Source of the DNA: Sphyrna mokarran
Taxonomy: Eukaryota
DNA length: 64,000 bases
Direction: 5' to 3'
NCBI GenBank assembly: GCA_024679065.1
Contig: JAGIQG010000014.1
Coordinates: 32,550,001-32,614,000, forward strand
The notes beneath the pieces were generated by a model that made no database searches, was not told the DNA's origin, and saw only the letters and a list, made by a program, of their open reading frames with translations. The position numbers and the translations under genes were made by a program. Shown piece after piece: positions 18,376 through 47,035 of this stretch (position 1 is the stretch's first letter; each line of letters opens with the position of its first letter).

Positions 18376-20640
18376 ATATAATCCCTACACTACAGAAGGA
18401 GGCCATTTGGCCCATCGAGTCTGCAGCAACCACAAACCCACCCAGGCTCTAGAACATAGAACATTACAGCGCAGAACAGGCCCTTCGGCCTTCGATGTTG
18501 CGCCGACCAATTAGGAAAAAGCAATGACCCTCTAACCTAAACAATCCCCTTTTCGTCCATAAACTTATCTACTTAACCTCTTAAACGCCACCAAACTTGG
18601 CACATCTACAACTGCAGCAGGCAGGGCATTCCATACTCTTACCACCCTCTGGGTAAAGAACCTACCTCTGACATCCGTCCTATAACTACCACCCCTTAAT
18701 TTAAAGCTATGTCCCCTCGTGCTAGCTTTCTCCATCCTAGGAAAAAGGCTATCCCTGTCCACCCTATCTAAACCTCTAATCATCTTATATGTTTCGATTA
18801 GGTCCCCTCTTAGCCGCCTCCTTTCTAACGAAAACAACCTCAAATCCCTCAGCCTCTCTTCATAAGACTTGCCCTCCATACTAGGCAACATCCTGGTAAA
18901 CCTCCTCTGTACCCTCTCCAATGCCTCCACATCTTTCTTATAATGTGGGGACCAGAACTGCACACAATACTCCAAGTGCGGCCGCACTAGAGGTTTGTAC
19001 AGTTGCAACATGACGTTGCGGCTCCGAAATTCAATCCCCCTACCAATAAAAGCTAAGACTTCGTATGCCTTCTTAACAACCTTATCGACTTGATTGCCAA
19101 CTTTCAGGGATCTATGCACATATACACCAAGATCCCTCTGTTCTTCAACACTATTAAGAGTCCTACCATTATCCCTATACTCTACACATTTGTTATTCCT
19201 GCCAAAGTGAATTACCTCAAACTTTTCCGCATTAAACTCCATTTGCCACCTCTCGGCCCAGCTCTGCAACTTGTCCAAGTCTCTCTGCAAAATAGAACAC
19301 CCCTCTTCACTATCTACCACTCCTCCGACTTTGGTGTCATCCGCAAATTTACTAATCCATCCTTCAATACCCTCATCCAGATCATTTATAAAAAATTACA
19401 AACAGCAGGGGCCCCAAAACAGACCCCTGAGGCACACCACTTGTCACCGAACTCCACGATGAATAATTTCCATCAACCACCACCCTCTGTCTTCTATCTG
19501 CTAGCCAATTCCTAATCCAATGAGCTAAATCACCCTCTATCCCATACATCTGCATTTTCTGCAGAAGTCTTCCATGGGCCACCTTATCAAACGCCTTACT
19601 AAAGTCCATATATACCACATCAACCGCCTTACCCCCATCCACCTCTTTGGTCACTTTTTCAAAAAACTCAATAGGTTAGTAAGGCACGACCTACCCTTCA
19701 CAAAACCATGCTGACTATCCCCAATCAATTCATTTCTCTCTAAATAACTATAAATCCTATCCCTAATAATTCTCTCCAATACTTTGCCCACAACAGAAGT
19801 AAGACTCACTGGCCTATAATTCCCTGGAAGGTCTCTCTTCCCCTTCTTGCACAATGGGACCACATTCGCTATCCTCCAGTCCTCCGGAACCACACCCGTA
19901 ACCAACGACGACCTGAAGATCAGACCCAGAGGCTCTGCAATCGCCTCTCTTGCCTCCCAGAGAATCCTAGGGTAAATCCCGTCCGGCCCAGGGGACTTAT
20001 CTAACTCCAAACCCTCAAGAATATCTAGCACATCCTCCTTATCTACTTCAATACTTTCCAGTTTACAACCCTGTATCCCAGTGTTCTCCACAACTACATT
20101 TACATCTCCCTGCGTGAATACCGAAGATAAATATTTGTTCAGTGCCTCTCCAATCTCTTCAGGCTCCACGCACAGCTTCCCACTGCTGTCTCTGACTGGC
20201 CCTAATCTTGTCCTAACCAATCTTCTATTCTTAACATATCTAAAGAAAGCTTTAGGATTCTCCTTGATCCTATCAGCCAAAGTCTTCTCATGTCCCCTCT
20301 TAGCTCTCCTCAACTCACTCTTTAGCTCCCTCCTGGCTAATCTATAGCTATCCAGTGCACTAACTGAGCCTTCAAGCCTCATCCTGACATAAGCCTCCTT
20401 TTTCCTTTTAACCTCCTTTTTTCCTTTCTATTCCCATAACCTCACACATTTATTATTGCTCCTGACACTAGGATTAATTTAACATGGCCAATCAACCTAA
20501 CCTGGTTGGACTATGGGAGGAAACTGAAGCATCCGGAGGAAACCTATGCAGACACAGGGAGAAAGTGCAATCTCTACATTGCTGGAACTGAACCTGGGTC
20601 CCTGGTGCTGTGAAGCAGTACTATGCTACCACGGTGCCCT
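18376..20640 (-). mobile_element. V-SINE/HE1-like SINE split by a young CR1 (pieces 18376-18451 and 20427-20640)
   Basis: The halves rejoin as cccaggctcta/ttcccataacc, collinear with the intact copy at 25862. Confidence 0.85.
18452..20426 (-). mobile_element. Young CR1 LINE copy A (5'-truncated, two frameshifts in ORF2)
   Basis: ORFs 19651-20382, 19382-19654 and 18565-19320 are nearly identical to the ORF at 50581; (gttcta)n-type tail. Confidence 0.97.
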
Positions 20641-25861: not shown

Positions 25862-26215
25862 TAGAATCATAGAAACCCTACAGTGCAGAAAGAGGTCATT
25901 TGGCCCATTGAGTCTGTACCAACACAATCCCACCCAAGCCCTAGCCCCATATCCCTACAATATTTATCTGCTAATCCCTCTATCCTACACATCTCAGAAC
26001 ACTAAGGGGTAATTTTAACATGGCCAATCAACCTAACTCACACATCTTTGGACTACGGGAGGAAACCGGAGCACCCGGAGGAAACCCACCCAGACAAGGG
26101 GAGAATGTGCAAACTCCACACAAACAGTGACCCAAGCTGGGAATTGAACCCAAGTCGGGAATCGAACCCAAGTCTCTGCAACTGTGAAGCAGCAGTGCTA
26201 ACCATTGTGCTATCA
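25862..26215 (-). mobile_element. Full-length V-SINE/HE1-like SINE
   Basis: tRNA head with duplicated B-box region, V-like core, CR1-shared tail. Confidence 0.9.
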
Positions 26216-27570: not shown

Positions 27571-30500
27571 CGTACATTCAGGACAATGTTCCTAGAACAA
27601 GTCATCATGGAAACAATCAGCAAACAGGCGACATTAGATTTTGTCTTGTGTAATGAGATAGGATTAATTACTAACTGCATCATAAAAAAAAATGATGAGG
27701 GAAGCGAGTGATCACAGTAAGTATGAATTCAAGAGCGAGATACTTAAGTCTGAAATGAAATAAAAATAATTAGAAAATCATAATCTAATGAAGTAGAGTC
27801 ACAAAAAGGTAATCACATCTAACTGACTTATTTGAGTTTTCAGAGAAGTCTTAATCAGAATGGATAAAGGGAAACAGTAATGTTTTGTATTTCAATTTCC
27901 AGTAAACATTTGACAAGGCTCCTCACAAAAAGTTAAGTCAAAAGATAAGAGCCATGGTGTTGGAGATGATATATTGGTATGAACAGAGAATTGGATAATG
28001 GGTAGGAAACAGTGAATGGGAATAATAGATTCTTTTTCAGGCTGGCGACCAGCGGGGTTTCTTGGGGATCAGTGCTGGAACCGTAACTGTTCAGTGCATA
28101 TACTAATGACTTAGAGGAAGAAGTGAATGTACTGTCACAAATTTGCAGACGATACAAAAATAGATCAAAAGGTGAATTGTGAGAGGGATACAAACAGTGT
28201 ACAAAAGAATATTGATTTGTTACGCAAGTGGGCAACAAGTTGCCAATTGGAGTATAACGTAGGAAAATGTGAAGTTGCTCATTTTGGAAGAGAGAACAAA
28301 AGAACAGACTATTATTTTTAAGTGGGAAAAAACTGCAGAAGTCTGCAACACAAAGGGATTTCGGGATATTTGTGAACGAAACAAAGTTAGCACAAGTGAA
28401 TTAGGTAATCAGGAAGGCTAGCAGAATACTGGGCTCTTACTTCAAAGGGATTTGAGTATAAAAGAGAAAAGTCTTGCTGCAACTGTAGAAGGTACTACAT
28501 CTGGAGTACTGTGAGCAGATTTAGACTCCTTGTTTAGGGAAAGATATTCCTTCGTGAAAACAATTCTGAGAAAATTCACGAGGATGACCCCTGGTGTGGA
28601 AGAATTATCTTACAACAAAGATTAAACAGGTTGGGACTCACTGAAATTTAGAAGAACAAAAGATATGGGTGGCATAGTGTTAACACTGTTGCTTCACAGT
28701 GCCAGGGACTCAGGTTCAATTCAAGCCTTGGGTCACTCTTTGTGTGGAGTTTGCACATTCTCCCTGTGTCTGCGTTCCTCTGGGTACTCCAGTTTCTTCC
28801 CACAGTCAAAAGATGTGCAGGTGAGGCTGACTGGCCATGCTAAATTGACCCTAGTATCAGGGAATTAGTAGGGTAAATATGTGAGGTTACAGGAATCGGG
28901 CCTGGCTGAGTTGGTGCAGACTTAGCGGACTGAATGGCTTCTTTCTGCACTGTAGAGATTCCATGATCTCATTGAAACAAATAGGATTTTTAAGGGACAT
29001 GATCAGGTAAATGCTGAAAGAATGTTTCCTCTCATGGGAGAGTCCAGGACCAGAGGCTGTATCCTTAGAATAAAGGGGCACCAATTTAAGACCAAGAGGA
29101 AGAATTTCTTCTCTTACAGGGTTATGAATCTTTGGAACTCCTTGCCACAGATAGTTGTGGGGACACAGTCTTGTGTATATTTAAGGTTGAGATAGACAGA
29201 TTTTTGATCAGTAAAAGATTCAAGGGTTACTAGGAAAGGGCAGGAAAAGTGGAAATGCAAATCAGCTATAAACCTACTGAATGATGAAACAGGCTTGAGG
29301 GAACGAATAATTTCTTATGGTTTTAAGATTTTGCGAAGGTAGATTTTGAAAATAGATTAAAAGCAATGACTATTGAAAAGTAATGATAAACATTTAAATA
29401 ATTCATACTTTGAACAAACATACATTGCCTTGAGAAACACAGATTTTGCAAGAAAAATGATTAATTCCTAGGTAAATTAAACAGGTTAAAGATAATATAA
29501 AAAGCAAGGTATCGTAGTAAGCCAAGGGTTTGAGAAAAATTTAGGAAACAGCATAGGGCGTTCAAAAAAATGAACACAAAACAGAATGACAGAACACTAC
29601 AGTGCAATACTTTGGCCCTCGATGTTGTGCTGACCTGTGAAACCAATCTAAAGCCCATCTAACCTACACTATTCCAATAGCATCCATATATTTATCCAAT
29701 GACCATTTAAATGCCCTTAATGTTGGCAAGTCCATTACTGTAGCAGACAGGGCATTCCAAGCCCTTACTACTCTCAAGAAAAAAAACAATACTTTCTAAA
29801 TGGTAAGAATATATTGTTCAGTTGATTTAAGAATTCTTTTACACAAAACACAAACTTAGCATGTAGGTACAGCAAACAGTAGAAGACAAGCGGGGATTGG
29901 AGCACAAAATTAAGGAAATCCTGTTGAATTGTAGTATGCGGTTTTGATTTCTGTGCCCAAGCAACGACATTCTTGCCTTAGGACATGGTGTAACAAAGAT
30001 TCAGAATTATATTTTGTGGGATGAGAAGATTGCTTCCTGAGAATTGATCGAGCAGAATGATCCTACACTCTTCAGAGTTTAGAAGAATGGGCTCGATAAA
30101 ATACACAAATTGAAAGTATTTCCTAAGCTGGTGTTTAGGACTAGGAGGAATATCCTTAAGATTAAAGGGATTGACTACTTAGTAGTGATATTGGAAAGGT
30201 TGTGAATCGTTGAATATTCAATCATATTTTTTGGAAAGGGAATCAAGGGAGATGGGAATTGGGAGGAAAACGAGTTGAAGTCAAAGATCAGCCCATACCC
30301 TTCTGAATCACAGGACAAGTTCAAGAGGCTTTAGGCCAATTTCTGCTTTTATTGCGTACCTTATGCATCTTAATAGATAGGAAATAAAAACAAAAAAAGC
30401 TAATGGCATATTAACCTTTATAATTAGAGGACTAGAATATAAAATGGAGGAAGTTTTGCTGCAGCTGTATGAAGTCCTAGTGAAATCATTGAGGACAGTT

Positions 30501-42719: not shown

Positions 42720-45700
42720 TCTTGCTGGAAATTGAGGAACAAGAAGAGCACGCAGATACACATGTGGTTGCAGGGATGGCGTAGGAGAGAGGGTTTCGTT
42801 TACTTGGATAACTGGAGCACATTCTGGGGAAGGTGGGAGGCAACGGCTAAGATTGCAGAGCCTTTAGCTTTGATCACTGTCCACGAGGATTGTGCCAGAG
42901 GTCTGCAGAGTGACAAATATTGTTCCTCTCTTCAAGGAAGGACGTAAGAATGACCCTGATAATTACAGGCCAGTTAGTCTTATTTCAGTAGTTGGACAGT
43001 TAATGGAAAAGGTCCTGAGAATATAGGATTTATGACCATTTGGAAAGATGTATCCTAATCCGGGATAGTCAGCATGGATTCGGGGGGTGGGGGGTCTTGC
43101 CTCACACATTTGATTCAATTCTTTGAGGTGGTAACGACGTGTGTGGGTAAAGGTAGAGCAGTTCATGTCATATATATACACACATAGATTTAGTAAGGAG
43201 TTTGATAAGGTTCCTCATGGTAGACTCATGAAGAAAGTAAGGAGGTATGGGATAGAAGGAAATTTAGCTGATTGGATAAGTAACTGGCTATCTCATAGAA
43301 GACAGAGGATGGTAGTGGAGGAAAAATTTTCAGACCGGAGGCCAGTTACCAGTGGTGTACCACAGGGATCAGAGCTGGATCCTCTGCTATTTGAGAGTTT
43401 TATCAATGATATGGAAGAGAGGACTGAAGGGTGGGTTAGTAAATTTGCTAATGACACCAAGATTGGTGGAGTAGTGGACGAGGTGGAGGGTTCTTGTAGG
43501 CTGCAAAGAGATATTGATAGGATGCAAAGCTAGGCCAAAAGTGGCAGATGGAGTTTAACCCTGCTAAGTACGAGGTGATTCATTTTGGTAGGACAAACGT
43601 GAATGCAGATTACGGGGTCAATGGCAGAGTTCTGAGGAATGAGGAGGAACAGAGAGATCTTGGGGTTCATATTCACAGATCTCTGAAGGCGGAAGTAGCT
43701 ATGACTCTCTTACATTTAAGCAGGGACGGCGAGTGGGAGAGTTATGGTTACAGTAGCTGTGTGAATTTTATCGCTTCTATAACAGAGTGAGTTGCGCCTC
43801 CTCGATGGTCCTGCCAGGCAACATCACCATTATTTGGGCAAGCGGTGATGGCTAAAGCAATTGGCCAAGGAGCGAATCGCGGATGCAATTGCACGTCTGT
43901 ACCCAGTCAGACTGCAATTGCAAAGAGGTGGATTGAGATTGGCTTTCATCCATTCATGCACAAGAAGGCTCCATTCCTATTTGCCAATGTCAAGTAGCTG
44001 TGCGGATCTTCTGGTTTCTAGCGCACAGCGATTGTTGGGTTGTTCGTTGTTCGGTTGTGTGTGTTACTTAATAAAAACCACTTTGTAACCAGATGATGTT
44101 TTATGGATAAACGGCTCGGAGCAAACCAGCAAAAACTGACATACACGACAAACGCTTCTCAGTGGTGTAACTCAATCTGCTTGTCTGCAATTATGGTGGT
44201 TGTGGCCACATCATTCTGAGATCAATCCCTTCCGCGGGAGCCACCTGGTATCGTCTCCACGGGCACAGGAGATGGTATTCCATGACTGGCTGAGAAACAA
44301 ATAGCGGGAGCAACTTACACCTATCCTATGACCACTATCACCGGACTGCCAGCCAGGAGCGGTATCGCTGGAATAGTACTTGGTATGTTTCGCACAACTG
44401 TGGTTATCTTGGCGTTCTAGACCACAGTGAGTCAAAACTAACTGAGGTCCCGCAGGGTATTCAAGCCTTCAAGCTGGCAGATGATAGTCCTGAAGGGAAT
44501 CTGACTGGCCCAGAACTGCCAACACGCTTCTGTACCTGTAAACCCAGTAACATGAAAGAAACTTTGACTTGACAGGTCCCGTCCTGTCCCAGGGATAGTT
44601 GGTGATTTGCATGTGACCGATGCAATCGCGCCTATGAAGGTAGCAGAAACCTCACCGAGACCTCCAGCCCACACAACCAGCTTCGAGGAGGGACGATTAT
44701 ACCCGTACCTGGTGTGACGCAGCGATCGTGGTGCCCCGGCTCGTACCTGATGATCGCTGGCCAGACGATGACGGAAAGGAGAAGGTTCGGGTGTACCTCT
44801 AGAGACTCTTGTAAATAGATATTTGTCTTCCATGCCCCGAGAGGTCGGTGTGCTTAGACAGCGATGGGTGCAGCTCCCGGGTTGTGCGAGTGTGTTTCAT
44901 ACCACGGTTGCGTTTTCGGTATTGTTGGGTTGTTCGTTGTACGGTTGTGTGTGTTACTTAATAAAAACCACTTTGTAACCAGATGATGTTTTATGGATAA
45001 ACGGCTCGGAGCAAACCAGCAAAAACTGACATACACAACAAACGCTTCCCAGTGGTGTAACTCAATCTGCTTGTCTGCAATTATGGTGGTTGTGGCCACA
45101 TCGTTCTGAGATCAATTCCTCGTTTCTGCTAGTGGCCTAAGGGCTGTGATAACATCTGGTGGAAGACACTCTGATTCCATTCAGAAGTGCGTGGCACATG
45201 TCGACAAGCGACAATAAAACTTGGACAAGACGCCACTTGTCTTGTCCGAGCCACTCAAATGGATTGACTGGTGAAGAAGGCTTGTAGTGTGTTGGCGTTT
45301 ATTAACGGGGGATTGCGTGTAAGAACCATGGGTTTATGCTGTAACTATATGGGACCTTGGTGAGACCACATTTGGAATAGTGTGTGCAGTTCTGGTCATC
45401 TCACTACAAAAAGGATGTGGAAGCATTGGAGAGAGTGCAGAGGAGATTTACCAGGATGCTGCCTGGTTTGGACAGTAGGTCTTATGAGGAAAGGTTGAGG
45501 GACCTGGGGCTTTTCTCTTTAGAGCGGAGGAGAATGAAAGGCAACTTAATAGAAGTTTACAAGTTGATGAGGGGGATAGATAGAGTGGATATTCAGAGAC
45601 TATTTCCTCGGGTAAATGTAGATGTTACTAGGAGGCATAACTATAAAGGTTCATGGTGGAAGATACAGGAGGGGTGTCCAAGATAGATTCTTTACTCAGA

Positions 45701-45897
45701 GAGTGGTTGGGGTATGGAATGGACTTACTACTGTGATAGTGGAATCGGACACTTTAGGAATTTTTAAGCAGTTATTGGATAGGCACATGGAGCACACCAG
45801 AATGATAGGGAGTGGAATAGCTTGATCTTGGGTCGGGACATAGCTCAGCAAAACATCGAGGGCCAAACGGCCTGTACTGTACTGTTTTATGCTCTAT
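42720..45897 (+). mobile_element. CR1 LINE split by a foreign insert (pieces 42720-43689 and 45250-45897)
   Basis: VHIHRSLK | ATQ.D..VKKA collinear across the insert; RT motifs SGVPQGS and KFANDTK. Confidence 0.9.
44031..45120. repeat. 200-bp direct repeat pair (44031-44230 and 44921-45120), 5 substitutions, 890-bp period
   Basis: Base-by-base comparison, no indels. Confidence 0.97.
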
Positions 45898-46696: not shown

Positions 46697-47035
46697 TGAC
46701 ACAGTAGCTTAGTGGTTAGCACTGCTGCTTCATAGCTCCAGTGGAACCAATAGAACCTGGGTTTGATTCCTGGCTCGGGTCAATGACTGTGTGGAGTCTG
46801 CACATTCTCCTTGTGTCTGTGTGGCTTTCCTCTGGGTGCTTAGGTTTCCTCCCACAGTCCAAATGTTAGGTTGATTGGCCACGCTAAAATTGCCCGAGTG
46901 TACTGAGATGCATACTTTAGAGGGATTAGTGGGTAAAATATGTATGGACATGCGGGTAGGATCTGAGCGGGATTGTGGCCGGTGCAGACTCGATGGGCTG
47001 AAGGGCATCTTTCTGCACTGTAGGGTTCTATGATA
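46697..47035 (+). mobile_element. Full-length V-SINE/HE1-like SINE
   Basis: gtggttagcactgctgc head, ggtttgattcc B-box, tail ctgtagggttctatg. Confidence 0.9.

Follow-up and report, generated by a model that had tools for sequence, protein, structure and literature searches.

Within the 64,000-nucleotide stretch of Sphyrna mokarran DNA analysed here (the window), a CpG-rich block splits a LINE. What this block is, and which machinery placed it there, are the questions that the locus raises. The interrupted LINE, presumably of CR1 type as labelled in the earlier note, lies on the plus strand. Its 5′ part (42874..43689, start approximate) holds ORF remnants of the RT region and ends in HRSLK, and its 3′ part (45251..45830, end approximate) resumes at ATQ. 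Translation verified that the block breaks the CR1 reading HRSLK|ATQ, and comparison with an uninterrupted CR1, which at the block site reads on as TTGCCACTCAAG, verified the reported lack of a target site duplication (TSD). Because the uninterrupted CR1 continues TTGCCAC at this site, the insertion cost two target bases and made no TSD. The limits previously set at 43690..45249 needed a small correction: the element occupies 43688-45233, with its first GG common to CR1, and ends without the last ~22 nt of its family. The bases that follow (45234..45250, plus strand) form a repair-type junction of 4 target-like bases followed by 13 nt that repeat the end of the element in inverted orientation (45238-45250). 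This inverted copy is old, since it keeps a CpG that has since been lost in the element. By CpG observed/expected ratio, the block was the top 1560-nt stretch of the whole window (0.75, where the CR1 flanks have 0.32 and 0.33 and the median of the window is 0.26). The CpG richness described before was thus confirmed, while the GC content was only modestly raised (48.8% vs 44%). The block had no long ORF, in agreement with the claim that it encodes no recognisable protein, and a scan against Rfam gave no match at E ≤ 5, hammerhead included.

The block contains two 200-nt repeats at 44031-44230 and 44921-45120, spaced 890 apart and separated by exactly the five differences named in the earlier note. 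Four of these sites stand; the fifth, 44227, falls outside the true breakpoint, which leaves a duplicated unit of 196 nt in which 4 positions differ. We refer to the two units as segment R1 (44031..44226, plus strand) and segment R2 (44921..45116, plus strand), as distinct from the retrotransposon R2. Searching the same genome with the block gave 581 candidates, from which 40 loci were scored. The 39 loci other than the window copy were 81-91% identical to it and belong to a dispersed family of ~1.36 kb. They matched the query at 1-342 and 528-1544, skipping R1. The R segment was present as a single copy in 36 of them, split by an insertion in one and absent from two, so that segment R2 is the native copy of the family's 3′ region and R1 is missing from 39/39. 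In the window copy, the rest of the family's 5′ body (U1, 43863..44030, plus strand) precedes R1 and is present in family copies, and the central body (44227..44920, plus strand) lies between the two segments. Since two R copies occurred in 0/39 other loci, R1 is best read, from these alignments, as a later, private, in-cis templated duplication of segment R2. At 7 positions the two segments depart together from the column majority, and two of these changes occur in 0/36 and 1/36 copies; 3 further changes are found only in R1 and 1 only in R2. R1 was entered at a 1-2 nt microhomology and left at the 5-nt microhomology TCAAT, and its best match in any other copy was 93%. The window copy as a whole differs by 4-8% from the family majority, depending on the part, and most of its changes look private because the closest relative found was only 91% identical.

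These counts bear on several other explanations of the block. The earlier note had proposed a TRIM, a retrozyme, a tyrosine-recombinase-type element or an integrated 890-nt circle, with the repeats as LTR-like or circle-junction sequences. The 196-nt near-perfect direct repeat with its AATAAA is real, which speaks for such a structure, and yet these readings lose their basis because the direct repeat is foreign to the family. The repeats are internal and not terminal, R1 and segment R2 differ at 4/196 positions while the copy differs more from the majority, and neither a hammerhead match in Rfam nor a TSD accompanies them. Families of DIRS/Ngaro tyrosine-recombinase elements are characterised by inverted or split direct repeats, and no such feature was seen in the present family. 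We regard this group of readings as very improbable. A template jump of the R2 reverse transcriptase at the original insertion, on RNA from an unsampled master, would alter only the last step of our own reading. R2 template jumps in vivo have been reported (PMC3414825), and the shared derived changes could have come from a master. Against this stand the private look of most changes and an R1-R2 divergence of 2%, well below twice the divergence of the copy from the majority, which leaves the template jump as an unlikely source of R1. A contaminant, a misassembly or an artificial insert has in its favour a block composition unlike that of the flanks. Family copies and R2 are equally CpG-rich, and hundreds of diverged copies lie on many contigs and chromosomes. 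Contigs from run X1, which may be the sample behind the assembly itself, span the U1/R1 junction and the 3′ junction with zero differences. The same run also has a joint of 43689 to 45250 with TT between, which may be an empty allele or a paralogous CR1. An artefact is therefore next to impossible. What survived of the earlier account is a foreign, apparently undescribed, non-autonomous mobile element inserted without a TSD.

The identity of this element was indicated by its two ends. Full family copies begin with the stretch of 28S rRNA that immediately precedes the R2 site (16 aligned heads), as compared with the 28S flank of the R2 site printed in the supplement of PMC13188248. A 20-mer of this head had 428 genome matches at one mismatch, and the control had 0. 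All 30 sampled head loci ran on into the element and none into 28S, a count in which one locus figures twice and another had been sampled before. The head was scorable in 75 of 90 ribozyme cores; the 28S match reached exactly -28 in 24 and -29 in 2 and was shorter in the rest, with L086 and L093 as exceptions that have longer 28S leaders. A typical R2 28S head is about 28 nt (PMC13580325), and R2 ribozyme cleavage has been reported 9-36 nt upstream of the site (PMC3774820). In the window copy, the 28S-derived head (43688..43712, plus strand, from -28) was placed by the aligned heads and the 5′ cut-off count. It begins with the predicted 5′ strand of P1, and its first GG is shared with CR1 as microhomology.

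Downstream of the head, a fold typical of R2 ribozymes was predicted. The putative HDV-like core (43790..43862, plus strand), with P2, P3/L3, the 3′ strand of P1, P4 and a J4/2 that has C at the catalytic position, was drawn from alignment and pair counts. P2, P3 and P4 were paired in 92.6% of cells, against 86.7% in shuffles and 23-60% with slid partners, in counts over 18 chosen cores of three classes that are related sequences with a structure written by hand. Two-sided compensatory changes occurred in P2 and P4, and two of the five pairing measures failed to beat shuffles on these 18 cores. In the predicted J1/2 linker, a long hairpin (43695..43751, plus strand) pairs the 28S head with the element in both the MFE and the centroid fold; the fold of the whole 183 nt at the 5′ end was weak (z = -1.77). 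The HDV-like R2 ribozyme at the family's 5′ end, to which Rfam gave no match either, is accordingly a prediction. P2 of the autonomous R2 ribozyme paired worse than P2 of the non-coding elements. We also observed tandem 28S-head repeats at the 5′ junctions of L034, L042, L043 and L049 (at about 1450-1545), and a fixed internal second head copy at about +75 in all young subfamilies. These head duplications resemble those modelled in PMC3774820.

The 3′ end region (45117..45233, plus strand) closes with the conserved terminal motif of lineage-A R2 3′UTRs (45200-45233). This motif and the terminal hairpin are common to every R2 subfamily of this genome, and both also occur in the published 3′UTRs of R2 from the zebra shark and two bony fishes (PMC13188248). 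Homology to R2 at the 3′ end covers the last ~55 nt in the window's subfamily and ~540 nt at 76% identity in the sister copy L093. With the present R2, the window's subfamily shares only the ribozyme and these last ~55 nt. Six 5′-truncated copies retained the 3′ end, as target-primed reverse transcription (TPRT) predicts. The family has no coding capacity, as no long ORF was found and tblastn of the R2 ORF gave nothing better than E 0.45; the centre of the element has no detectable homology to the R2 ORF. A zinc-finger-like reading near 44606 was considered as a remnant of the R2 ORF and rejected, as tblastn gave it no support. Judged by sequence, the ends identify the block as an R2-mobilised non-LTR element, and the family's anatomy of 28S head, predicted ribozyme, R2-type 3′ terminus and no protein is that of an R2 SIDE.

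The same genome carries sister subfamilies of the element and an autonomous partner. The younger non-coding subfamilies measure 1.5-1.65 kb and are up to 96-98% identical among themselves. Their 5′ ~900 nt align at about 70-76% with the window's subfamily, central body included, and their 3′ halves align with the 3′UTR of the autonomous R2. Counts of end motifs were 134 for the window type, 165 for the R2 type and 367 for the young type, the last two overlapping. The autonomous R2 is represented by L086, about 4.95 kb long with one frameshift, for which avian R2 proteins scored best in PDB (E 5e-161). It encodes a single ORF with 3 ZnF, Myb, RT, CCHC and RLE and belongs to lineage A. A search with the endonuclease region found at least 152 matches on many contigs (150 scored of 631 candidates). 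Among 20 fetched R2 copies, chosen for long frames, 9 had open frames of 1345-1358 aa; the RT motif was intact in 7 of these 9 and the KPD motif in 9/9. The youngest R2 group is 97-98.7% identical, and older dispersed copies are 74-85% identical to it. The 3′ flank was not 28S in 29 of the 30 best R2 copies. No autonomous R2 with the 3′ region of the window's subfamily was found in 13 sampled tails. The CpG richness of the block is shared by family copies and R2 alike.

Further features of these elements were recorded in passing. The R2 frame of L131:858-4922 and its sisters is already open within the ribozyme, and the first Met is codon 53. At L146 / L210:7853 and onward (minus strand), the 3′ end of a young R2 directly abuts the 5′ end of another R2 family, which is diverged (about 67-69% DNA identity), internally deleted and interrupted. 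In L223:490-4782, an old R2 fragment is followed, after about 1 kb, by a window-type element of the same orientation. The R2 3′UTR (L086:7020-7250) and the young non-coding subfamilies hold a segment 73-83% like a common SINE of the genome, which occurs in the window at 46765-46863, 26057-26132, 28731-28847 and 20514-20574. This segment, which we take to resemble a V-SINE/HE1 domain, is absent from the window's subfamily.

Copies that border 28S sequence pointed to a source in rDNA. The assembly had 0 matches to the intact 28S R2 site (exact 29-nt). With a downstream 28S motif, 15 loci were fetched of 19, and the element end lay directly before the motif in 11/15, including one copy of the window's subfamily with a 100-nt 28S tail. 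Downstream 28S of 38-357 nt is present in some copies. L093 is flanked by 28S on either side, L082 has a 28S tail, and in L090 an R2 end at a contig edge is followed by the full 3′ part of 28S. Because copies with 28S tails or flanks exist, masters of the family are likely to reside in rDNA; as the assembly has no intact 28S site, they are seen only indirectly (L090, L093 and L086). Three of the 11 loci (L076, L077 and L081, on C741 and C949) are near-identical, error-rich arrays of element, 28S tail and tandem repeat, and are probably a low-quality assembly of one locus. Separately, L071, L078, L079 and L083 are dispersed 28S fragments without an element that start about 10-16 nt upstream of the R2 site (around 1500). 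Their start is possibly a reverse-transcription stop or an R2-linked cut.

The sites of insertion were compared across 134 distinct 3′ junctions, with 11 further rows dropped for having no A run; a few of the class labels are wrong. Five of the 134 ran on into 28S and 129 did not. In these 129 junctions, the match to TAGCC at +1..+5 was 95, 79, 69, 57 and 63% and fell near background from +7, with a similar profile in all classes (49 junctions of R2, 40 of young elements and 40 of the window's subfamily). TAG followed 75/129 junctions (58%) vs 2.6% after A runs in the window. No excess of TSDs was detected, the 66 copies examined being equal to shuffled pairs. Likeness to 28S upstream of the junction was weak (-15..-1, 31% vs 24% in the control; -35..-16, 31% vs 27%), in a small and diluted comparison with a homolog for 37/129 flanks in 22 clusters, at least 4 of whose representatives are other occupied sites. 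Homologous empty repeats also carry a TAGCC-like site at the insertion points. All three classes inserted independently at the CR1 position that is occupied in the window, with flanks colinear on both sides, and this position happens to mimic about ten bases of the 28S upstream of the R2 site as well. A second CR1 hot spot lies at the NYRPV coding motif, with TAG(A/G)CC downstream and no upstream 28S likeness, and was seen in the CR1 copies of L007, L044, L066, L128, L130, L136, L140, L167, L175, L176 and L198. Insertion confined to the 28S site, by which R2 is recognised, does not describe this autonomous R2. Nor does the absence of both target preference and 28S-flanked copies, by which R2NS is recognised, as the TAGCC preference is present and L086 and L090 are 28S-flanked.

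Such copies could be made as follows. Master copies at the R2 site of 28S genes would be co-transcribed with rRNA, and the ribozyme would cut at 28 nt before the site, so that the 28S head stays on the RNA. The R2 protein would bind the 3′ terminal structure in trans and nick non-rDNA sites, where priming would occur if the nicked strand can base-pair with a short 28S stretch, UAGCC, left at the 3′ end of the RNA. The 5′ end would then be joined through microhomology. At the window locus, the 3′ end appears to have been joined imprecisely with a snap-back insert, and much later template-switch repair would have copied segment R2 into the 5′ body, giving R1. With a probability of roughly 0.87, then, the block derives from an element that encodes no protein and has a 28S head, a predicted ribozyme and an R2-type 3′ end, one copy of which was pasted into CR1 by the protein of the genome-scattered autonomous R2. 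Alternatively, R2 and SIDE masters in rDNA could supply the RNAs while CR1/L2 machinery spread the copies as processed pseudogenes. CR1-type LINEs are everywhere in the loci examined, many insertions lie inside CR1, and both the copies with long 28S tails and the four plain 28S fragments would fit this route. Copies made in this way would not be expected to end as they do, with 129/134 junctions stopping exactly at the R2 3′ end and resuming at the TAGCC-like site of empty repeats, with no added tail and no TSD. The single CR1 position hit by all three classes also argues against it. We consider CR1/L2 machinery a distinctly unlikely agent for the family as a whole; it may still explain the minority of long-tailed copies.

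The family resembles R2Dwi_SIDE of Drosophila willistoni (PMC3414825) in its R2-type HDV-like ribozyme at the 5′ end, R2-type 3′ end, lack of an ORF, centre without R2 identity and dependence on an autonomous R2. R2Dwi_SIDE measures 529 bp, whereas the shark elements measure 1.36-1.65 kb. Unlike R2Dwi_SIDE as described there, the shark elements have a vertebrate host, a 28-nt 28S head and hundreds of copies outside rDNA, and they form several subfamilies with different 3′ halves. R2 SIDEs are called rare in that source, which describes them in 28S genes. The autonomous R2 has the same 3 ZnF, Myb, RT and RLE as lineage-A R2 of sharks and birds (R2-1_STig, PMC13188248; R2Tg, 9dou) and shares with R2-1_STig and lineage A the ribozyme core, the 3′ terminal motif and canonical-site 28S flanks (here L086 and L090). 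Unlike these R2s, it has at least 150 scored copies outside rDNA, several of which keep a full-length frame open. When six motifs of the elements found here were compared with the main table of PMC13188248, none matched.

Copies of R2 with unrelated flanks, some very young, are known from the flatworm elements R2NS-1_SMed and R2NS-1_CSi (PMC5035012). These belong to clades D and C, while the shark R2 belongs to lineage A and has a vertebrate host. Unlike R2NS as characterised in PMC5035012, it prefers TAGCC, is still found at the 28S site and is accompanied by non-autonomous parasites. In PRINT with avian R2 proteins (PMC11371274), off-targets share only the primer-complementary bases downstream of the nick, as here, and snap-back junctions occur as well. 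PRINT off-targets amount to about 1% (TaGu) and 0.1% (ZoAl) in cultured cells, whereas the shark insertions are fixed in the germline over a long evolutionary span.

Non-specific R2s are known from two flatworms (PMC5035012), and sponge R2-like elements have also been described. An inventory of 2026 lists shark R2s as 28S insertions, and its consulted portion mentions no dispersal or non-autonomous forms (PMC13188248). In rows 107, 165 and 166 of its Table S2, the upstream cell of the catshark seems, by eye, to start with non-28S sequence followed by about 120 nt of 28S, and its white shark and barramundi entries lack upstream 28S. These table entries hint at dispersed R2 copies in other fishes. 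No dispersed or vertebrate R2 SIDE was found in the open literature, a scope that leaves Repbase, Dfam and subscription journals outside. According to a 2026 review, few R2s lack specificity and real specificity is probably a range (PMC13580325). The same source holds that extant locations can mislead, as copies in rDNA are purged while dispersed ones escape this, a caveat that applies here.

Taken further, our results allow for a dual-mode R2 in this cartilaginous-fish lineage, which would keep its 28S masters while its DNA recognition is relaxed and about five bases of the RNA tail set most sites. We hold this extension tentatively, at slightly less than an even chance. An unusually relaxed R2 protein and an ordinary leak that has piled up because dispersed copies escape rDNA turnover are nearly evenly matched. 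A dual-mode R2, if it exists, would be the first generalist R2 of a vertebrate and have intact young copies across the genome; it would also have sustained a long-lived SINE-like parasite family that kept the ribozyme and body and swapped 3′ halves. The ~600 dispersed insertions would then serve as a natural atlas of off-targets for the class of enzymes with which genes are inserted into rDNA.

The window insert is likely the trace of an R2 insertion well away from the usual target, with about five bases as its guide. R2 is a model site-specific retrotransposon and is under development for safe-harbour gene insertion, and this genome supplies hundreds of natural off-rDNA insertions of one lineage-A protein together with intact ORFs. 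SIDEs are extended from rare inserts in Drosophila rDNA to an abundant dispersed family in a vertebrate, with a minimal 3′ recognition module of ~55 nt. How R2 persists despite rDNA turnover is described as unexplained (PMC13580325), and a reservoir outside rDNA, such as the copies found here, is a possible answer.
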